A stretch of DNA of 64,000 nt from Minisyncoccota bacterium. Its GTDB lineage: Bacteria; Patescibacteriota; Minisyncoccia; Phycocordibacterales; UBA5272. The position numbers were made by a program, and so were the translations under genes. Location: the NCBI GenBank assembly GCA_031972295.1, contig DALYEZ010000002.1, forward strand, positions 9,596 through 73,595. Direction: 5' to 3'. Below, one piece after another: positions 2,819 through 36,139 of this stretch. Numbering within the stretch: the first letter of the stretch is position 1; every line of letters begins with the position of its first letter. The notes below the pieces were generated by a model. That model saw only the letters and a program-made list of their open reading frames with translations, did not search any database and was not told where the DNA came from.

Positions 2819-3394
2819 ATGGGAAATTTTGATCGAGGTGGAAGACGAGAAGGTGGTTTTAAAGGAGGTAATGGTGGAGGCAAACCAGCTTTTCAAAAAA
2901 AGCCATGGGCTAACAATGATCGTGGTGGAGATGTGGCAATGCATAAAGCAACATGTAGTGAGTGTGGGAGAGCGTGCGAGGTTCCTTTCCGTCCATCAAA
3001 TGGCAAGCCGGTATTCTGTAAGGACTGTTTTGCTGGCAAAAGAGAACAAGAAAGCCGTGGAGCACGCCCTGAATTTGGAGACCGAGGACCAAAGAGAGAT
3101 TTTAATGATAAATTTGCACCGCGGTCTGAGTTCAAACCAGCTCCTGCAAACGATGAGGTAAAGAAACAACTAACAGATATTGGATACAAACTCGAACGAC
3201 TGCTTGCTTCAATGGATCGATTGGTGGATTCAGTAAAAAAAGAAGTGTCGGTTGCGAAACCTGCAGCTACAGTTGCTCCAAAAGTTGAAACAGTAAAAGC
3301 TCCTGCAAAAGTAGTTGCGAAGCAAGCTGCGAAAGTGGTGGTTGCAAAGAAAAAAGTTGCTGAAAAGAAAGTGGTAGCAAAAAAGAAGAAATAG
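2819..3394 (+). CDS. Gly/Arg-rich zinc-ribbon protein (CxxC-x17-CxxC, zf-trcl-like) with Lys/Ala-rich basic tail
   Basis: N-terminal RGG-like repeats (FDRGGRREGGFKGGNGGG), a C-SECGRACEVPFRPSNGKPVFCKDCF zinc ribbon, and a C-terminal AKKKV/KVVAKK histone-H1-like tail. Likely nucleic-acid binding. Confidence 0.5.
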   Translation: MGNFDRGGRREGGFKGGNGGGKPAFQKKPWANNDRGGDVAMHKATCSECGRACEVPFRPSNGKPVFCKDCFAGKREQESRGARPEFGDRGPKRDFNDKFAPRSEFKPAPANDEVKKQLTDIGYKLERLLASMDRLVDSVKKEVSVAKPAATVAPKVETVKAPAKVVAKQAAKVVVAKKKVAEKKVVAKKKK

Positions 3395-4489: not shown

Positions 4490-5346
4490 AAGTGAGTACT
4501 ACGTGCACCAACGATAATTCGTTCAATAATCCCTTTGCATCCGCGACGCAAGCAAAATTTTCCTTTACGTTGATATACCTGATGATGCTTGTGAGAAACA
4601 CCAGCTTCACCGTGAATATTTCTGTAGTCTGATGTTGAGTCGCCACCAAATAGAAGTCCATCACGTAAAACTTTTTGAGTATTTTTAAATAGAACAGCGA
4701 AGAGTTTTTGCGGAATGTTTTGTACTCGAGATTCAGGATGAACTCTTGAAAGCCATAAGAGTTCGTCGGAATAGATGTTTCCAATGCCAGCAATGACGCT
4801 TTGATCTAATAAAACCTGCTTTATTTTTCCGCGAGGCTTGCTTTGCATTTGTCGAGCAAAAAGTATTGCGGTTGTATCTACATCGAGTGGCTCGGGCCCG
4901 AGGTGTGCAAGAAGTGGCGAGTGAGGAAGATGTTCAGTAACTTCAATTGAAATCTTGCCAAACTTCCGAGCATCACAAAAAACGAGTGATCGGCCATCTT
5001 TCAAAGTAAAGACAACATGAATAAAACGATTAAATGGATCGGCAAGCGCGCCCTTTTCTTCCGGTACAAATCCGAGTTTTGTTTTTCGGTATTTTCCAAC
5101 CATCAAATGTCCCGTCATCTTCATGTGCACAATAATTGTGTGTTTATTTGAAAGATGAATCAGAATATGTTTTCCACGGCGTGAGGCATTCTTTATAGTT
5201 GCGCCACGAACTATTTTCCGTACTTCTTTGTAGGAATTATTTCGAAACATTCTTTCCCAGTTGTGACAAACATCAAGAATGACCGCGCCCTTAAGTGTCT
5301 CGTTTATTCCATTTACTGTCGTTTGAACTTCCGGCAGTTCGGGCAT
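4462..5346 (-). CDS. mutM: formamidopyrimidine-DNA glycosylase (Fpg/MutM)
   Basis: Canonical MPELPEV N-terminus (catalytic Pro2/Glu3), H2TH region, and a C-terminal CxxC...CPVCQ zinc finger. Confidence 0.9.
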   Translation of the reverse strand: MPELPEVQTTVNGINETLKGAVILDVCHNWERMFRNNSYKEVRKIVRGATIKNASRRGKHILIHLSNKHTIIVHMKMTGHLMVGKYRKTKLGFVPEEKGALADPFNRFIHVVFTLKDGRSLVFCDARKFGKISIEVTEHLPHSPLLAHLGPEPLDVDTTAILFARQMQSKPRGKIKQVLLDQSVIAGIGNIYSDELLWLSRVHPESRVQNIPQKLFAVLFKNTQKVLRDGLLFGGDSTSDYRNIHGEAGVSHKHHQVYQRKGKFCLRRGCKGIIERIIVGARSTHFCPVCQVQY

Positions 5347-5347
5347 A

Positions 5348-5911
5348 CTATTTTGCTAAAAGTTTCAATGCGGTTTTGAGTTTATCGCCAGTTTCACCGT
5401 CGCCAACTTGATTGAGTAGGGGGCGAATGTCAGAAAGAGAATACCCAAGGCTTTGAAGCGCGTCGATAAGCTCACTGTGACTGCTTTGGTTTGCAAAAGA
5501 AACGTCTGCTTGGGCTGAGAGTTTGTCTTTGAGCTCAACAACAATTTTCTCGGCAGTTTTCTTTCCAATACCAGAAACTTTTGTGAGGTAGTGTACGTCG
5601 TTGTTTGCGATTGCAGTGCGTAGGTCGCGCACTGATCCGAGACCAATAATGCCAAGCGCCCCTCGTGGACCAACGCCAGATACAGAAATAAGTTCTTCAA
5701 AAAAAGCTTGCTCGTCTTTTGAAGCGAATCCAAAAAGCTCAAAGGCATCTTCGCGAACAACGGTGTAAATCCAAAGGGCAGCCTCTTTTCCTACAACAAG
5801 TGAGGCAAGTGCGTTTGGTGAAGGGAAAACTTTATAGCCCACACCCTGTACCAAGAGTATGCAACTCTTTTCTTCTTGTGTAAGCACAACACCTTCAAGA
5901 TATCCGATCAT
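5348..5911 (-). CDS. ruvA: Holliday junction branch-migration complex subunit RuvA
   Basis: MIGYLEG start, HhH motifs (ISVSGVGPRGAL, TKVSGIGKKTAEKIV), and a C-terminal RuvB-interaction domain. Confidence 0.85.
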   Translation of the reverse strand: MIGYLEGVVLTQEEKSCILLVQGVGYKVFPSPNALASLVVGKEAALWIYTVVREDAFELFGFASKDEQAFFEELISVSGVGPRGALGIIGLGSVRDLRTAIANNDVHYLTKVSGIGKKTAEKIVVELKDKLSAQADVSFANQSSHSELIDALQSLGYSLSDIRPLLNQVGDGETGDKLKTALKLLAK

Positions 5912-22851: not shown

Positions 22852-24606
22852 ATGTATATGAAACCAGTTATTCCTCTCACACTCATTGCTTTTTGTTTGA
22901 CTTTGGTTGTAGGGACACTCACATCTCCGTTTAATACGACGGTTCAAGTGGGAGCGGTTGCCTTTTCGACTGACAGCGGAACACGAGAAATTGCTCGTGA
23001 TGGCGCACTTGCTAATGTTATTTCTTTTAAACAATCGACCATACAAACAAAGGAGGGTGATCGAGTGAAAGTAATTTTGACTTCTTCGGGACCAATTCAG
23101 GAAACCACTAGAGTAAAAGTAAAAATAATAGGAGGTACAGCAAAAAATGGTGTCGACTATCGCTTGTCTCCCGCACAAACAATTACCTTTTACAAAGGTG
23201 GATTACGTGAGAAATCTTTTTTAATCCCAACCTTAACAGACAAGATTAATGAGCAATCAGAAACCATTATCCTTTCTTTGTATTCCTCAACAGATCAATC
23301 TCTTGATAAAAAGACAACGATTAATATTGGTAATGGTGCTGTTTCTCCAACAACGCCACCAAGTACGGGTGCAAGTGCTGTAGCGCAGCAAGTTAATCTG
23401 AACGCTATCCCTACAGACACATCTTTAGACACAAACGGCTGGCCAAAATATCTAAAGGTTCCTGCGACATGTGCTAAGCCAATCGCTGGAAAGAGATATA
23501 TTTTTGAACCTCGCTTTGGCCGACACCCAACAGATAATTTTTCAGATAAATTTGTTGCCCCACTTCTTACTTCTGGTTTTGGTGGTAGTAGTGGAGAATT
23601 TGTTATAAACAAAACTTCTGATGAAGTATTTGCAATTCCTTTCTATGCACCATATCTTGCGAGTGTCAGTGAAACAGTAAAGCTAAAAGCTGATATGGCC
23701 CGACTCGGAGATATTGCTATGGGCAATGCTACGCAGTATTGGGCACCGCATGCTGCTTATGGAAATGAGATACAGATGAGCATTTCAAAGTGTCCAGGGG
23801 GCGAAAATCCTATTGTAAGCACAGGTGCAGGAGGGTATGGCACATTAGTCACTGGCATCACTGTTGATGGAGAAAAAACACGAACAGCAAACGGCGGTAA
23901 TTTAAACCAGGGTGGTTATTATTTTTTAAACATCTCCGGACCGTGTGAACGAGATTTTTCGGATCCAACCTATACTACTGGCATATACGCACGAAATGGA
24001 AAACCTTTATGTGCGAGCATTACACAATCATATGGTTCCTATAGTGCTACATCTATCCCACCGTACACTGGCCCAGCTCTTTCTAAAGGTCCATACCCAA
24101 TAAACTATAATTATAAAATAGTGTCTGCGAGTGCACCTAATAGCTATCCAGGTAACGAGGCAATGCGATGGCGATGTTTTGATGTTACAGGAAAGGGTCC
24201 TGAAATGCGTTATGAAATAACAAGTAGGGGATGGACAGAGCCAAATAAACCCTCCTACTCAAATTATGTTTGTGCAGCTTATGGAAGCACAGAATCTCGC
24301 CCAGCTTCTTTTGAGGATGTGCCAGTCTATAGGGTTTGTGCCAAACATTCAGTGGGATATACTCGGACTTCTCGCGTGAGTCTATTTAGTATTCCACTTC
24401 AGCACATAGACACTTGTCAGTTTGATACAGTAAAAGGTGTGTATTATTGGAAAACAACAACTGCATCAAACAGTACGCTCCAACTTCTCGACCAAGCAAC
24501 TCCAATAGGTGCGTTTAACTTCACCACTGCCTGGAACAGCACTCCAGGAACTGTTGAGTACAAAGACGCAAGTGGAACACTCATCAAGTCAGAACGTTTC
24601 CATTAA
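22852..24606 (+). CDS. secreted Cys-rich protein with Calx-beta-like domain
   Basis: Signal/TM N-terminus. Residues 60-160 fit the Calx-beta pattern (VKIIGGTAKNGVDYRL...ETIILSL). About 16 Cys in the C-terminal 400 aa. Confidence 0.45.
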   Translation: MYMKPVIPLTLIAFCLTLVVGTLTSPFNTTVQVGAVAFSTDSGTREIARDGALANVISFKQSTIQTKEGDRVKVILTSSGPIQETTRVKVKIIGGTAKNGVDYRLSPAQTITFYKGGLREKSFLIPTLTDKINEQSETIILSLYSSTDQSLDKKTTINIGNGAVSPTTPPSTGASAVAQQVNLNAIPTDTSLDTNGWPKYLKVPATCAKPIAGKRYIFEPRFGRHPTDNFSDKFVAPLLTSGFGGSSGEFVINKTSDEVFAIPFYAPYLASVSETVKLKADMARLGDIAMGNATQYWAPHAAYGNEIQMSISKCPGGENPIVSTGAGGYGTLVTGITVDGEKTRTANGGNLNQGGYYFLNISGPCERDFSDPTYTTGIYARNGKPLCASITQSYGSYSATSIPPYTGPALSKGPYPINYNYKIVSASAPNSYPGNEAMRWRCFDVTGKGPEMRYEITSRGWTEPNKPSYSNYVCAAYGSTESRPASFEDVPVYRVCAKHSVGYTRTSRVSLFSIPLQHIDTCQFDTVKGVYYWKTTTASNSTLQLLDQATPIGAFNFTTAWNSTPGTVEYKDASGTLIKSERFH

Positions 24607-26239: not shown

Positions 26240-26356
26240 GTACTTGACTTACTATGTATAAATGTGGTTTAAAGTTAAAAGCTCTTTAAACAAAGTTTAT
26301 TAGTTTGCCATAGCTTTAAGTGTTTATCTTTGAACTTTTAAAGCTATGGCAAACTA
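26239..26356 (+). promoter_or_regulatory. conserved upstream block (GTACTTGAC...TATAAATGTG) + 19-bp perfect-stem hairpin leader; a homologous copy sits at 30438..30554
   Basis: Direct comparison of the two copies; see findings. Confidence 0.5.
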
Positions 26357-26399
26357 GAGATCACAACGATCAAAGGCGACTAGCATAAGGAGCAACGCC

Positions 26400-26990
26400 A
26401 TGTCCAAAGACATGACCCTGCAACAAATCGACAAAGCAGTAGGAAACTACCGGGCAATGCTGGTGAAGCATACCGACAGCTTTCCAGCCGATGCTGTTCA
26501 ATCAGTACTTGGAGATCGCAACTTCGCTGCAGAGCAGTTCAGACTCTTCCGTGCGCGAGTCGAGGCTTGCTCAGGCATCATCATCCGCGACTTCACCGTT
26601 GACCTCAATCTCGTGGGCATGCGAGCAATCAGTGCGACTGGTTGCGTGAAGCATGTGAATGAGCACGTAGCGGAAACCATGCCCCGCGCAACTGTCTCTG
26701 AGGGCAAGTTGTATTTCTTCCAAATCGGTCGTGCCACACCGGCTGATAAAGTGGAAGCTGGGTACGCCAAACGCGGACTGATCCCCGTTGATCCACACAC
26801 GCTGTGTGCCTTCAATGCAGCCAACCAAGAATTTGCCGATACCCACCACAACGGCACCCAATGGAAAGATGAGAACGCCAACATCTGCCGTATGGGTTTC
26901 GGTAGGTGGAGCGGCATGCGCCGCGTGTACGTCGGCCGGAACGGCTATGGCTGGGACGACGGCTGGTGGTTCGCCGGTGTCAGCAAGTAA
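26400..26990 (+). CDS. orphan hypothetical protein, compositionally foreign (GC about 54% vs about 40% in flanks)
   Basis: Strong RBS AAGGAG 7 nt before the ATG. C/G-ending codon bias. Antisense ORFs 26498..26917 and 26571..26861 are GC artefacts. Followed by terminators at 27003-27027 and 27093-27122. Confidence 0.5.
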   Translation: MSKDMTLQQIDKAVGNYRAMLVKHTDSFPADAVQSVLGDRNFAAEQFRLFRARVEACSGIIIRDFTVDLNLVGMRAISATGCVKHVNEHVAETMPRATVSEGKLYFFQIGRATPADKVEAGYAKRGLIPVDPHTLCAFNAANQEFADTHHNGTQWKDENANICRMGFGRWSGMRRVYVGRNGYGWDDGWWFAGVSK

Positions 26991-27159
26991 GCTCTTTGGA
27001 CTGAGGCCTCAGGACTTTTGTTCCTTAGGCCTTTGTCAAAAAAAGTTGGAAGAATAGCTATAAACTTCCATACCTCCGCTGCGTCTTGCAACGGAGTTTT
27101 TATTTTTGTAGTCACACAGTACCCATCAAACCGTTACAAGAGGTATATACTATATTAAT

Positions 27160-29479: not shown

Positions 29480-30376
29480 ATGTTTATCATCAAAAATAAA
29501 ATTTTCTTTCTCACATTCTCAGCCCTTCTTGTTGCGGCATCACTTGGAGTACTTGTAACCCTTGGTTTAAAGCCAGGTATTGAGTTTAAGGGTGGGGCAA
29601 TTGTGGTAGCGCAATATACAAATGCTGTGCCAGAACTTGAGCAGATTAAAAACCAAGCAAAAAATCTTGGACTTGGCGACGTGACTGTTCAGGCATCAGG
29701 TGAAAAAGAAGTGATTGTAAAAACACGAACTCTGGTAGAGAGTGATCGACCTGTCCTTTCACAGACGTTGAGTATTGCTGGAGCTTTTCCGTATACTGAA
29801 AAGAGCTTCAGTGCCATTGGACCTTCGATTAGTAAAGAGCTTACAACAAAATCAATTCTTGCAGTGATTCTTGTATCGCTCGCAATTATTATCTTCATCA
29901 CTTTTGCTTTCCGAAGAGTTTCAAAGCCAGTGGCTTCATGGAAATATGGACTCATTACTATTGCAACACTTTTGCATGACATCATTGTTCCTGCAGGGCT
30001 CTATGCATATTTGGGCTATGCATATGGTGCAGAAGTGGACACACTTTTTGTTGTAGCACTCCTTACTATTCTCGGTATTTCTATCTCAGATACAATTGTA
30101 ATCTTTGACCGTATTCGAGAAAACTTGAGTAAGAAAATCTCACAGAGTTTTGAAGAAGTGGTGGGGACGAGTCTCTCGCAGAGTTTTGTGCGGTCTATGA
30201 GTACATCTCTTACGGTAATCATCGTACTTTTAGCGCTCTTCTTCTTTGGCCCAGAGCCGACAAAGTGGTTTGCGCTCACTCTTGTGACAGGAATGATTGT
30301 GGGAACATATTCATCAATTTTCGTGGCATCTCCTTTACTTACCTTGGTTGAAAAGTGGCAAACGGCTAAGAAATAA
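29480..30376 (+). CDS. secF: protein translocase subunit SecF
   Basis: Immediately after secD. IKNKIFFLTFS... 6 TM helices, VIFDRIREN. Confidence 0.85.
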   Translation: MFIIKNKIFFLTFSALLVAASLGVLVTLGLKPGIEFKGGAIVVAQYTNAVPELEQIKNQAKNLGLGDVTVQASGEKEVIVKTRTLVESDRPVLSQTLSIAGAFPYTEKSFSAIGPSISKELTTKSILAVILVSLAIIIFITFAFRRVSKPVASWKYGLITIATLLHDIIVPAGLYAYLGYAYGAEVDTLFVVALLTILGISISDTIVIFDRIRENLSKKISQSFEEVVGTSLSQSFVRSMSTSLTVIIVLLALFFFGPEPTKWFALTLVTGMIVGTYSSIFVASPLLTLVEKWQTAKK

Positions 30377-30437
30377 AGCTTTCTCTCACTCAAATAAAAA
30401 TCTCTTACCAAAATAAGAGATTTTTATTTGAGTGAAT

Positions 30438-30554
30438 GTACTTTGACACATAATATAAATATGTGAGATAGTGCATAAAGTCAAGGTTCTTTATCAAAGT
30501 CTGTCACAGCCTTAAGTGTTTACAAATGTTGAATATTTAAAGTTGTGTCAGACT
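30438..30554 (+). promoter_or_regulatory. second copy of the conserved upstream block + covarying hairpin leader
   Basis: GTACTTTGACACATAATATAAATATGTG, then arms AGTCTGTCACAGCCTTAA / TTAAAGTTGTGTCAGACT around a GTGTTTA...TGAA loop. Confidence 0.5.
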
Positions 30555-30580
30555 AAATTTCTAAAACGATGGAGAAGACC

Positions 30581-31072
30581 ATGCTTAAGCGACATACAGA
30601 GCAAGATGTCATTACAATCGAACGTTCCGAACCTTTCAGCCCATCTACTTTTGAGGGCCGTGACTTGTCTATCGGTGAGCAAGACGAACGGTCGCTGGTA
30701 CTTTCTGAAGTGGATCGGAGAATGATCTTTCCTCTGGGAATAGTGAGCCTCGCTGAAAGGTCTGCTAGGGGGGAAGATGTGCTAAAACGGCTCAAATCCA
30801 AAAAGCACATTCGTCTAGACGCCAAGATTGGGGAGGTACTCTGGAAAGACTACGCGCTCAATAAGGAGAACAGTATCCTTGAGTGGTTACGTCTAAAGAA
30901 ATTGATCAGATTTCTCCCTTTTATGGGAACTGTCCTGGAGGATCTGAATGGTCGTCGATTGGTATTCTGTTTGTTTTGGTGGGAAGCGGAATGGTCTAGT
31001 TCCTTTCGGTTTCTGGAAGACCAATGGAGCACCTTACAGCCACCGGTCTGCTTATTTGTGTCCAAGAGCTAG
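30581..31072 (+). CDS. orphan hypothetical protein downstream of leader copy 2
   Basis: GGAG 6 nt upstream of ATG 30581 (alternative ATG at 30569). GC about 46%. Terminator AACTCCGATGCGTCGCATCGGAGTTTT at 31107-31135. Coding status less certain than for the 26400 ORF. Confidence 0.35.
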   Translation: MLKRHTEQDVITIERSEPFSPSTFEGRDLSIGEQDERSLVLSEVDRRMIFPLGIVSLAERSARGEDVLKRLKSKKHIRLDAKIGEVLWKDYALNKENSILEWLRLKKLIRFLPFMGTVLEDLNGRRLVFCLFWWEAEWSSSFRFLEDQWSTLQPPVCLFVSKS

Positions 31073-31224
31073 CATCTGAAAAGGCAGAATAAGCTTCTTG
31101 GTTTAAAACTCCGATGCGTCGCATCGGAGTTTTAATTGCCGTTTGGGCCTTCTTGTTGTATACTGACCCACATTAAACAAGCCTCTGTATGGGGGCTTTG
31201 TTTTTACAACACACACAATAATTT

Positions 31225-33372
31225 ATGGAAGCACGAGAATATCCCCTAGAGAAAGTACGCAATTTCGGTATTATTGCGCACATCGACGCCGGAAAAACGA
31301 CAACGTCTGAGCGTGTTCTCTATTACACTGGACAATCACACAAGATTGGTGAAGTTCATGATGGCGAGACAACAACCGACTGGATGGTACAAGAGCGAGA
31401 GCGAGGTATCACCATTACTGCCGCGGCTATTACCTGTTTCTGGAATCCAACCTACATGCCTGAAAAGGATGTAAGTAAGAAAGTTCGATTCAACGTGATC
31501 GACACCCCAGGACACATCGACTTTACTATTGAAGTAAAGCGTTCACTTCGCGTACTCGACGGTGCGGTGGTGGTATTCGACGGTGTAGCCGGTGTAGAGC
31601 CACAATCAGAAACAAACTGGCGTTATGCTGATGAGGGAAATGTTCCACGTGTGTGTTATATCAACAAACTCGACCGAATGGGCGCGTCATTCGACAAGTC
31701 CTTCCAAAGTATTCTTGACCGTTTGACTAAGAAAGCCGTGCGAATGCAAATTCCAATCGGAACAGAAGAAAACTTTTCTGCCATTATCGACTTGGTAAAA
31801 ATGAAGGCGTACAAGTTTGAAGGGGAAATGGGAAAGCAGATTGTAGAAATGGAAATTCCTGCTGAATATCTAGAGCAAGCAACAAAGCTTCGTGGAGAAA
31901 TGATCGAACGTATTGTAGAAATTGATGAAAACATGATGACTGCGTACCTCGATGGTAAGTCATTTACTGTTGAAGAATTGAAAGCAGCAGCGCGAAAAGC
32001 GGTTATTGCAAACGAACTCTTCCCAGTACTTTGTGGGTCATCACTCAAAAACAAAGGTGTACAGCTCGTGCTCGACGCGGTAGTAGACTACCTGCCATCA
32101 CCACTTGATATTCCAAAACCAAAAGGTATTGATCCAGTAACAGGCGATGCAATTGAACGAGAAGTTTCAGATACAGCACCTCTTTCTGCACTTGCGTTCA
32201 AACTCCAATCTGACCCATTCGTAGGGCAGCTTACATTCGTACGTGTGTACTCAGGAATCCTTGAATCAGGAAGCTACATTTTCAACTCAACTAAAGACAA
32301 GAAAGAACGTATTGGGCGAATCATGCTTATGCAGGCAGACAAGCGTGAAGAAGTAAAACAACTCCATGCTGGAGAAATCGGTGCGGTAGTTGGTCTTAAA
32401 GACACTATTACTTCAGACACACTCTGTGATGAAAATAATCCTATTATTCTCGAACGAATTGTTATTCCAGAATCTGTAATCTCAATGCGAATTGAGCCAA
32501 AGACAAAGGCTGACCAAGAAAAAATGGGTATGGCACTTTCTCGTCTGGTAAGTGAAGACCCAACACTCCGTGTATCTACTGATCCAGAAACACTTGAAAC
32601 TATCATTGCTGGTATGGGTGAACTTCACCTCGATATTATTATCGACCGAATGAAGCGCGAATTTAATGTAGAGGCAAACACAGGTAAACCGCAAGTTGCA
32701 TACAAAGAAACAATTCAAGGATCATCTGAAGCAGAAGGAAAGCACGTGAAGCAGTCAGGAGGACGTGGACAATACGGACATGTACGTATTCGTATGAAGC
32801 CGCTTGATAGAACTGTGAAGGTTGAAGATCTTCCAAAGAACGTAAAACGATCTGAAGGATTTGAATTCATTAACAGTATTAAGGGTGGTGCTATTCCTCA
32901 AGAATTTATTCCAGCTGTAGAAAAAGGATTTAAAGAAGCTATGGACCGTGGTGTTTCAGCTGGATACAAAATGACAGACGTTTCAATCGAGCTCTACGAC
33001 GGATCATTCCACGAAGTCGACTCATCAGAAATTGCCTTCAAACTTGCCGCTATTGAAGCGTTTAAAGAAGCTGCTCGCCGTGCGAAGCCAGTAATTCTCG
33101 AACCAATGATGCGAGTAGAAGTAGTAATTCCTGATAAGTTCTATGGTGACATCACCGGAAACCTTTCTTCAAAACGAGGACAGATTGAAGGTATGGAAGA
33201 CCGAGGACTTAACAAAGCTATCAAGGCTTTGGTCCCACTCTCAGAAATGTTCGGCTATGCCACATCACTCCGTTCAATGACAGAAGGACGAGGAAACTTC
33301 ACTATGGAATTTGCTCAGTACGATGTAGTGCCTTCAAGCATTGCAGCGACTATTGCAGAACAGAAGAAGTAA
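31225..33372 (+). CDS. fusA: elongation factor G
   Basis: [23 protein letters not shown]-domain motifs, full-length five-domain EF-G. Confidence 0.95.
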
Positions 33373-35344: not shown

Positions 35345-36139
35345 ATGACTGAACAAACAACACAAACAACAGAAGGTGGAGCTCCAGTAGTTCCTGTAGC
35401 ACAAACAGCAGCACCTCGTCCTCCAATGGGTGGTTTTAGAGGAGCTCCTCGTCCAGGTGGTGCAGGCGGAACACGCCCTCCATTCCGACGTGGCGGCTTT
35501 TCAGGCGGTCCTCGTCGTCCAGGCGGTCCAGTAACTGCCGGTGGCCCACAAGGTCAAGGTGGTGCGCGTGGCGGCTTTAGATCAGGTGGCCCAGGTGGTC
35601 GCCCAGGTCAAGGTGGAGGAAGAAGCGGTGGAGGTCGTTTTCAAGAACGTCGCCCTTCAGAATTTGAGCAAAAGATGATTGATATTCGTCGTGTAACTCG
35701 TGTAGTTGCCGGTGGTCGTCGATTTAGTTTCTCAGTATCGCTTGTTGCTGGTGATCGCAATGGTCGCGTTGGATTTGGTATGGGAAAAGCTACCGACACA
35801 TCACTTGCTATCGAAAAAGCATTCAAGCAGGCTCGTAAGAACATGCTCACACTCCGTCTTACAAAGACAAAATCTATTCGACATGACCTTTCAGCAAAAT
35901 TTGGTAGCGCTTCAGTTACGATGATGCCAAACAAAGGTCGAGGTCTTATTGCGGGAAGTTCGGCTCGTGTTGTGCTTGCGTTTGCTGGTGTAAAAGATGT
36001 AACTGCAAAGTATCACTCTGGCACCAAGAACAAAATTAACAACGCAAAAGCTGCAATTGCCGCTCTTTCGCAAATTGCATACAGACATGGTGAAGCACCA
36101 GTGCGTAAGGTAGAATTAAAGACAGAAGGAGAGCAATAA
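35345..36139 (+). CDS. rpsE: 30S ribosomal protein S5 with an approximately 100-aa N-terminal Gly/Arg/Pro-rich extension
   Basis: Core uS5 from IDIRRVTRVVAGGRRFSFS...GMGKA...TLRL. The extension runs GGFRGAPRPGGAGGTRPPFRRGGFSGGPRRPGG.... Confidence 0.9.
   Translation: MTEQTTQTTEGGAPVVPVAQTAAPRPPMGGFRGAPRPGGAGGTRPPFRRGGFSGGPRRPGGPVTAGGPQGQGGARGGFRSGGPGGRPGQGGGRSGGGRFQERRPSEFEQKMIDIRRVTRVVAGGRRFSFSVSLVAGDRNGRVGFGMGKATDTSLAIEKAFKQARKNMLTLRLTKTKSIRHDLSAKFGSASVTMMPNKGRGLIAGSSARVVLAFAGVKDVTAKYHSGTKNKINNAKAAIAALSQIAYRHGEAPVRKVELKTEGEQ

Follow-up and report, generated by a model that had tools for sequence, protein, structure and literature searches.

A structured leader shared by unrelated variable-protein genes of diversity-generating retroelements, with a solitary and apparently inserted example between secF and fusA in Patescibacteria

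Introduction

Why should two small genes with no detectable homology share the same structured leader, and why should each stand alone among genes of unrelated function? The question is raised by a stretch of 64,000 nucleotides from a Minisyncoccota bacterium (contig DALYEZ010000002.1 of assembly GCA_031972295.1, positions 9,596 to 73,595 of the forward strand), which we call the window and to which all positions refer unless another locus is named. Two such units lie within it: cassette 1, between the genes for a FAD oxidase and a SIMPL protein, and cassette 2, between secF and fusA. A first-pass annotation had read them as moron-like, or as small mobile or acquired expression cassettes, in which one regulatory module had been deployed ahead of two nonhomologous cargo genes.

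Homology points instead to diversity-generating retroelements (DGRs), which are especially common in the tiny, episymbiotic Patescibacteria and which are, to our knowledge, the only prokaryotic system for targeted protein hypermutation. One cellular lineage of these elements, clade 2, is restricted to Patescibacteria, or the Candidate Phyla Radiation (CPR) (Roux et al. 2021; PMC8144416). We favor, with moderate confidence, a reading in which positions ~30437 to 31137 hold a self-contained DGR-type variable-protein unit of ~700 bp that was inserted in this lineage, carries a leader acting in the mRNA, and is probably no longer diversified.

Results

Homology places both cargo proteins among DGR variable proteins

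The open reading frame (ORF) of cassette 2 had been taken for an orphan. That label does not survive an exhaustive phmmer search of 1.84 billion cluster representatives, which returned 527 relatives at E ≤ 1e-3, 142 of them at E ≤ 1e-10, the closest match among these ~1.8 billion representative proteins being 39 to 44% identical; a word-indexed search of 5.8 billion proteins matched the cassette-2 protein to itself only. We call these relatives family B. Their source names are nearly all Patescibacteria, Paceibacterota, or Minisyncoccia, and such names as the proteins themselves bear read "hypothetical protein." Most members are 200 to 230 aa long, with ~55 extra N-terminal residues, and some are 150 to 165 aa, like that of cassette 2. 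They share a conserved core (I.IDRS.PF.P..FIG.GW.I.EQDERSL.LTEVD ... GEEKL.RLK...IRLDA), after which the alignment resolves the C-terminal ~45 residues into a fixed scaffold interspersed with hypervariable positions. Alignment A3 was too diverse for the locus search, for which alignment A4 was used.

Given 86 family sequences, AlphaFold2 modeled the cassette-2 protein at a predicted local distance difference test score (pLDDT) of 92.2 and a predicted template modeling score of 0.87; from the single sequence the pLDDT was 32.6. The exhaustive search and the model built on the multiple sequence alignment together rule out a spurious ORF or a true orphan. Foldseek searches of PDB and BFVD with this model gave nothing below E 0.4, and the C-type-lectin fold usual among DGR variable proteins surfaced only as the faint chains 1sb2_B and 3wbr. 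A sequence-profile search of PDB returned no match. Neither cargo protein matched Pfam, PHROGs, or PADLOC, none of 36 family-B members matched Pfam, and no transposase domain was found in cassette 2, whose unit holds a single ORF. At one family-B locus (L108, ~1860 to 2090) a stretch of 190 nt from the 3' end of the gene recurs without a mismatch in inverted orientation elsewhere on the contig, through an inverted duplication or else an artifact of assembly.

The cassette-1 protein belongs to a smaller group, family A, with 12 homologues in which the last ~35 residues are hypervariable over a fixed scaffold. Families A and B have no detectable homology (hhalign probability, 2%; tblastn empty), and the earlier statement that the two cargos are unrelated is thus upheld at the level of sequence and profile. 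We also rejected the idea that cassette 2 is a decayed or frameshifted cassette-1 gene, given that hhalign result and a family-A tblastn of all six frames of 30377 to 31225 that was empty.

What ties the two families together is the company that they keep. In 10 loci a reverse transcriptase (RT) and/or Avd directly follows the family-B gene, and seven family-B loci (L085, L092, L095, L097, L100, L103, and L111) contain clean pairs of variable repeat (VR) and template repeat (TR). Family A is represented by L004, where a 111-nt repeat of the 3' end of the gene, 85% identical, pairs a VR at 2540 to 2650 with a TR at 2967 to 3077; 15 of the 17 mismatches fall at adenines of the downstream copy, which is followed by bAvd and an RVT_1 reverse transcriptase. 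Across these eight loci, TR adenines hold 15 to 18 of 17 to 25 VR/TR mismatches, and the VR terminates in ...CGCAAGT where the TR has ...CGCAAC, resembling an initiation-of-mutagenic-homing motif. Relatives of both cargos thus carry adenine-specific VR/TR pairs. Because family B elsewhere directly precedes an adenine-mismatched TR, Avd, and RT, the cassette-2 protein can be identified as a DGR variable protein, and by homology both cargos are variable (target) proteins of DGRs, from two unrelated families. Like the DGR targets of Patescibacteria/CPR, whose VR/TR pairs, Avd, and RT adjoin the homologues of both cargos, they are small and devoid of Pfam domains.

A conserved noncoding stretch of ~200 nt, seen just upstream of the TR in L085 (3440 to 3660), L004 (2760 to 2960), and L092 (5545 to 5760) and containing ...CCGAAYCCAGTATYCAT...AGATACTTGGTAT..., is probably part of the DGR RNA. 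In L092 a 15-nt segment of this stretch matches the 3' arm of the same locus's leader hairpin (5608 to 5622 versus 4772 to 4786; 14 of 15 positions), a match that chance could produce. Nothing comparable was found in four other loci, and we rejected a link between the leader and the DGR noncoding region.

One structured leader precedes genes of both families

The two cassettes share a direct repeat of 25 nt at 84% identity (26302 to 26326 and 30498 to 30522) that forms, in each, the 5' arm of a long hairpin (26301 to 26356 in cassette 1; Table 1 for cassette 2). The folding z-scores against shuffled sequences are −5.0 for the cassette-2 leader and −7.5 for that of cassette 1. The leader has a recurrent layout: a sigma-70-like promoter, a pyrimidine stretch of the form [AT]G[CT]TCTTT(TT), the long hairpin with a core GYCRYAGC...GCYRYGRC, and a strong Shine-Dalgarno (SD) sequence, AGAAGGAGGA in most. 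This layout precedes most family-B genes of the metagenome loci and the family-A genes of L002, L003, and L004.

Covariation supports the 22-bp hairpin. In an alignment of 16 leaders only, some of them closely related, 94.9% of cells are paired and 14 of the 22 pairs carry double changes. No shuffle out of 500 came up to these values, and sliding the register by 1 to 3 columns left only 31 to 46% pairing. Two hairpin positions are conserved as G-U, and scores on the sense strand are two to three times those on the antisense strand, a combination that suggests that the structure forms in the sense transcript.

A covariance model (CM) with window sequences in its seed, R1, hit the window at 26275 to 26359 and 30480 to 30558 only. 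A second model, R2, was built from metagenomic leaders with no window sequence, and its top two hits of the 64 kb were 26277 to 26359 (49.6 bits, E 2e-9) and 30467 to 30558 (32.1 bits, E 5e-5). The proposal that one regulatory module stands ahead of two nonhomologous cargo genes is borne out. Of 42 DGR-protein loci, at least 22 have a leader CM match ahead of the gene for the variable protein, and identified leaders always lie on the sense strand, ~25 to 75 nt before the ATG that starts a gene of family A or B. Every downstream gene of identified family encodes a DGR variable protein of one or the other family. The 696 kb of 80 Patescibacteria secF loci gave no credible hit, in a search that missed the copy in L005, where ~170 nt are inserted in the loop, and 10 candidate viral loci gave none either. 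Rfam 15 returned nothing at the gathering threshold, and at E ≤ 10 it gave only subthreshold hairpins resembling microRNA precursors. The leader is a real, conserved structured element that occurs, among the loci examined, solely ahead of genes for DGR variable proteins, which belong to two or more unrelated families.

Its form is not constant. The L005 insertion (1508 to 1680) falls exactly in the hairpin loop and contains further stem-loops, and expanded loops also occur in L002, L004, and L087; the CM misses or underscores such copies. Short variants in L116 (3360 to 3423) and L006 (1760 to 1800) retain the pyrimidine stretch and the SD without the central hairpin.

Insertion of cassette 2 and exchange of cargo

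The closest relatives stand at about the distance of separate species: flanking DNA of the window is 80 to 92% identical to that of L005, 75 to 85% to that of L006, and 74 to 82% to that of L007. In L005 and L006, the two closest relatives, the secF-fusA junction is empty: secF and its terminator are followed by ATTGCCGTTT...TGTATACTG... of the fusA promoter region. Homology with the relatives stops at 30381 and resumes at 31132 to 31136, which delimits cassette 2 as an insertion of ~700 bp at ~30437 to 31137, and since the junction is empty in both relatives the insertion appears to be specific to this lineage. We infer that cassette 2 was inserted here. Aligned with the empty sites, its junctions reveal neither a target-site duplication nor terminal inverted repeats, and the unit has no transposase, which sets it apart from transposons, insertion sequences, and miniature inverted-repeat transposable elements.

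Could cassette 2 be an old resident gene that its relatives have lost? The choice of insertion over loss rests on parsimony across three relatives at 74 to 92% DNA identity, a point that weighs against our reading: only three related junctions are available, and their DNA differs from that of the window by 8 to 26%. The junction is itself variable. At this position in L007 (2733 to 3950) stands a 405-aa ORF with a hydrophobic N terminus that resembles the 584-aa Calx-beta protein of the window (22852 to 24606, ~6 kb upstream), an occupant that marks the junction as a variable spot in the genus. Loss would have to accommodate two independent empty sites, each with an intact and alignable spacer from terminator to promoter. 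It must also contend with the elevated G+C content of the cassette (47.2% for the cassette-2 coding sequence [CDS] and 55.5% for that of cassette 1, against 41.4% for the window) and with a best homologue that is only 39 to 44% identical among so many representatives. We regard an ancient residence as quite improbable.

The FAD oxidase-SIMPL junction gives a second view of how such units change. Three genomes hold three unrelated cargos there (window 26240 to 27110, L005 1425 to 2510, and L006 1735 to 2500): a family-A protein in the window, a 210-aa family-B protein in L005 with 40% identity to that of cassette 2 (E 1e-28), and a third, unrelated protein of 191 aa in L006. All are flanked by a conserved promoter/leader and a related 3' untranslated region (UTR). 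The window and L005 are homologous from the promoter through the 5' arm of the hairpin to 26326, inside the loop, and again from 26985, 5 nt before the stop codon, through the 3' UTR; this gap implies a replacement of the cargo, with the leader and the 3' end conserved on either side of it. The cargo genes are G+C-richer than their hosts (55% versus 43.5% in L005 and 51% versus 41% in L006). A comparison of junctions with relatives, which the first-pass annotation had proposed as a check, finds secF-fusA empty in L005 and L006 and the cassette-1 junction occupied there by other cargo.

These breakpoints also invite the view that the hairpin is a recombination site at the DNA level, akin to attC, that mediates cargo exchange or insertion and is not an mRNA element. 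The loss of homology within the loop, the placement of the L005 insertion exactly in the loop, and the failure of leaders and cargo families to segregate together would all fit, and integron cassettes are likewise short mobile units of one ORF plus an imperfect hairpin whose cargo is exchanged at a fixed locus. However, the neighborhood contains neither an integrase or transposase nor a cassette array, in an analysis that did not model attC core sites as such; the units are solitary between housekeeping genes, and the junctions of cassette 2 lack the duplications and inverted repeats already mentioned. Unlike attC, the hairpin precedes the ORF and lies inside the predicted transcript, with a promoter-like site before it and the SD of the following gene after it, and each unit has its own terminator, with a promoter-like site in cassette 2. 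The conserved G-U pairs and the strand asymmetry fit a sense transcript, and ordinary homologous recombination between conserved flanks would give the same breakpoints. We consider a DNA-level role of this kind improbable and take homologous recombination between shared flanks as the simplest explanation for the cargo swaps.

The first-pass reading, a generic moron-like or mobile cassette in which a promoter-leader module drives arbitrary cargo, can draw on much of the same evidence. Each cargo indeed has a standalone leader-ORF-terminator unit (the promoter-like site was scored for cassette 2 only), and the picture of an acquired or mobile cassette stands insofar as the units are modular, lineage-specific, and foreign in composition. 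The notion of arbitrary cargo does not: the leader is tied to one functional class, every identified downstream gene encoding a variable protein of family A or B, and it has no credible match in the Patescibacteria DNA and candidate viral loci searched. Cassette 2 resembles a phage moron in being an autonomous gene with a promoter-like site and a terminator between unrelated genes; it differs in lacking any prophage context, for the window contains no phage genes and neither cargo has a PHROG hit. In scans of IMG/VR, family-B relatives were absent, as were exact matches to the metagenome-type leader pattern, and the 10 AT-rich matches to the window-type pattern lacked CM support. We accordingly rejected a phage origin and, with it, the term "moron-like," and we hold a generic cassette to be very improbable.

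Cassette 2 is probably decoupled from diversification

If cassette 2 encodes a DGR variable protein, is it still diversified? Unlike the DGR targets to which it is related, it has no RT, Avd, TR, or conserved pre-TR region within the 64-kb window, and the same holds for cassette 1. The RT and Avd of L004 found nothing below E 0.28 in the window by tblastn, and neither 30920 to 31110 nor 26840 to 27000 is repeated anywhere in it. The CGCAAGT motif that ends the VR of the eight cleanly paired loci is absent from 30900 to 31140, where the closest strings are TCCAAGAGC and GGCAGAATAAGC; cassette 1 keeps a GCAAGT core at 26984 to 26989, at its stop codon. The two 3'-UTR hairpins of cassette 1, L003, and L005 are likewise missing from cassette 2, which has a TAAGCTTCTTGG remnant and then only a terminator. 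Cassette 2 has also replaced two tryptophans of the scaffold for which the family TRs that were read carry TGG, a codon free of adenine. Given the want of an RT, Avd, and TR in 64 kb, together with the lack of the VR-end motif and the 3'-UTR hairpins, cassette 2 is probably a solo, decoupled target gene, which DGRs of this type no longer diversify or diversify only inefficiently.

The principal alternative is that cassette 2 is an active remote target, diversified in trans by an RT, Avd, and TR encoded elsewhere, with its terminator hairpin in place of the usual 3' hairpin. Our search for a DGR core covers the 64-kb window only, and this counts against our reading. Remote targets are known for DGRs, and surveys centered on the RT miss them (PMC8144416). 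Solo family-B genes are common as well, 9 of 10 checked having no RT, Avd, or TR in their flanks (~2 to 5 kb on each side), so that the solitude of cassette 2 is by itself uninformative. The scaffold of the family is retained in its protein, for which the predicted fold is of high confidence, and the VR-equivalent part of the gene is adenine-poorer than the rest (0.19 versus 0.28). The absence of a TR from the window, the missing VR-end motif, the replacement of the two TGG-templated tryptophans, and the missing 3'-UTR hairpins all pull the other way, and we judge continued diversification in trans to be doubtful, if still a serious contender to decoupling.

How the leader may act

Minimum-free-energy structures pair the pyrimidine stretch with the SD in 12 to 13 of 16 leaders, with the long hairpin as an intervening domain. 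The predicted anti-SD:SD helix joins UUCUUUAUC to GAUGGAGAA in cassette 2 and GCUCUUUA to UAAGGAGC in cassette 1. Strong SDs (AGGAG, AGAAGGAGGA) mark both cassettes and nearly all family-B genes. An SD-like motif lies within 20 nt of the start in only 4 of ~37 other long window ORFs tested, too few for a background control of SD accessibility, and the signal by which translation of the variable-protein genes is initiated may be an uncommon one in this genome.

We propose that the leader would act in the mRNA, where the hairpin would bring the pyrimidine stretch beside the strong SD and so occlude it. Translation of the variable protein would then be low until the structure was opened or cut. 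The leaders of lambda N and of Escherichia coli adhE are cut by RNase III, and by analogy cleavage of the 22-bp stem is one candidate for release. The leader is like these SD-sequestering leaders, and like RNA thermometers, in having an upstream pyrimidine stretch that is predicted to pair with the SD and a near-perfect duplex of ~22 bp between the two. It is unlike them in that the pairing is a prediction with insecure statistics and in that conservation extends to the sequence of the hairpin (GYCAYAGC...), a hint of a sequence-specific partner and not of a purely thermodynamic device.

Support for this occlusion is weak. The anti-SD:SD pairing beats chance only weakly: mononucleotide shuffles of the U-rich 5' segment reached the observed pairing in 2 of 60 trials for cassette 1 and 6 of 60 for cassette 2, and in up to 50 of 60 for other leaders. 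With both strands of the anti-SD:SD helix almost invariant, covariation is absent there. Transcription of the leader and its regulation are predictions, and its cleavage by RNase III is suggested by analogy.

A more speculative extension joins the two roles. The leader could be a specialized part of DGR biology in Patescibacteria and not an ordinary 5' UTR: a hairpin, in RNA or single-stranded DNA, whose sequence is read by a DGR-linked factor and that forms, with the conserved VR end and the 3' UTR, portable homology arms by which unrelated variable-protein genes are swapped at fixed loci or seeded at new ones. Hypervariable surface proteins would then have a cassette system of their own, with translational control built in. 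We offer this only tentatively and think it unlikely in full.

Layout of the unit and its neighborhood

Cassette 2 is bordered by secF (29480 to 30376) and fusA (31225 to 33372), with SecD/SecF encoded upstream, EF-G downstream, and ribosomal-protein genes also among the neighbors. The leader, the ORF, a GGAG 6 nt before the ATG, the terminator, and the position between secF and fusA are all present as the first-pass annotation had listed them. The promoter-like site is a consensus match only, at 10 of 12 positions, with a predicted transcript start at ~30479 to 30481; none was called for cassette 1. An alternative ATG at 30569, overlapping the SD, would extend the protein to 167 aa; the NCBI annotation, in which the window is part of MAG GCA_031973375.1, has the 163-aa form. 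The 3' half of the cassette-2 terminator matches that of cassette 1 at 88% over 17 nt. Read by eye, the TAAGCTTCTTGG motif resembles TAAGCTCTTTGG / TAGTTCTTCGG, which overlap the stop codon in cassette 1, L003, and L005.

Table 1. Coordinates of features of the two cassettes and of the flanks of cassette 2 in the window
Feature	Position	Strand	Remarks
Cassette-1 leader motif	26275..26359	+	Matched by the independent model R2 (49.6 bits)
Cassette-1 CDS, 196 aa	26400..26990	+	Family-A DGR variable protein by homology; 55.5% G+C; GCAAGT at stop codon
Cassette-1 3' UTR	26991..27105	+	Two hairpins and terminator; conserved in L003, L005, and L006; mostly absent from cassette 2
secF terminator hairpin	30386..30435	+	Left flank, outside the insert; diverged orthologous terminator in L005 and L006
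Promoter-like site	30443..30472	+	TTGACA 30443-30448, 18-nt spacer, TG-extended GATAGT 30467-30472
Structured leader motif	30480..30558	+	Pyrimidine stretch and long hairpin; R1 51.5 bits; independent R2 32.1 bits, E 5e-5
Putative anti-SD stretch UUCUUUAUC	30487..30495	+	Predicted pairing with GAUGGAGAA at 30568-30576; suggestive only
Central leader hairpin	30498..30554	+	Stem differs from the cassette-1 stem by compensatory changes
Ribosome-binding region	30568..30583	+	GGAG 30571-30574, ATG 30581-30583, spacing 6 nt
Cassette-2 CDS, 163 aa	30581..31072	+	Short-form member of the unannotated Patescibacteria family B of DGR variable proteins
VR-equivalent C-terminal segment	30920..31069	+	~Residues 114-163; GT.L....G.R.V.CL.W...W......L...W.....; from alignment A3 and VR/TR pairs of homologous loci
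TAAGCTTCTTGG motif	31090..31101	+	18 nt past the cassette-2 stop; resemblance to TAAGCTCTTTGG / TAGTTCTTCGG by eye
Cassette-2 terminator	31103..31139	+	Perfect 16-nt inverted repeat 31103-31118 / 31120-31135, then T-run
Right flank, where synteny with relatives resumes	31132..31224	+	ATTGCCGTTT..., fusA promoter region; first bases overlap the terminator 3' end

Farther along the window, the 5' part of the gene for ribosomal protein S5 (35345 to 35800) has a G+C content of up to 59% and imperfect 35-nt repeats. These encode a Gly/Arg/Pro-rich sequence that looks like a low-complexity N-terminal extension.

Discussion

The literature that we searched yielded nothing on how the expression of DGR variable proteins is controlled or how their target genes move, and full-text searches turned up no description of a conserved 5' leader on such genes. 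Both the leader and the exchange of cargo between the leader and the 3' end thus appear to be undescribed. The nearest precedents are the candidate RNA motifs RT-1 to RT-19, which adjoin bacterial reverse-transcriptase genes (Weinberg et al. 2017; PMC5737381). Like them, the leader is a structured noncoding element of retroelement loci; unlike them, it precedes the target gene and occurs even at loci that have no RT nearby.

Several consequences follow for the biology of DGRs in Patescibacteria. A conserved structured leader without an Rfam entry distinguishes the target genes of DGRs, in two or more protein families that are unrelated, and the cargo enclosed by one leader and one 3' end varies among closely related genomes. 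DGR target genes can stand by themselves, with any RT at least tens of kilobases away, and the leader model could mark the remote or orphaned targets that RT-centered surveys miss (PMC8144416). The leader also provides a testable handle on the regulation of variable proteins, and a role can now be assigned to a protein family whose hundreds of detectable relatives have been labeled only "hypothetical protein."

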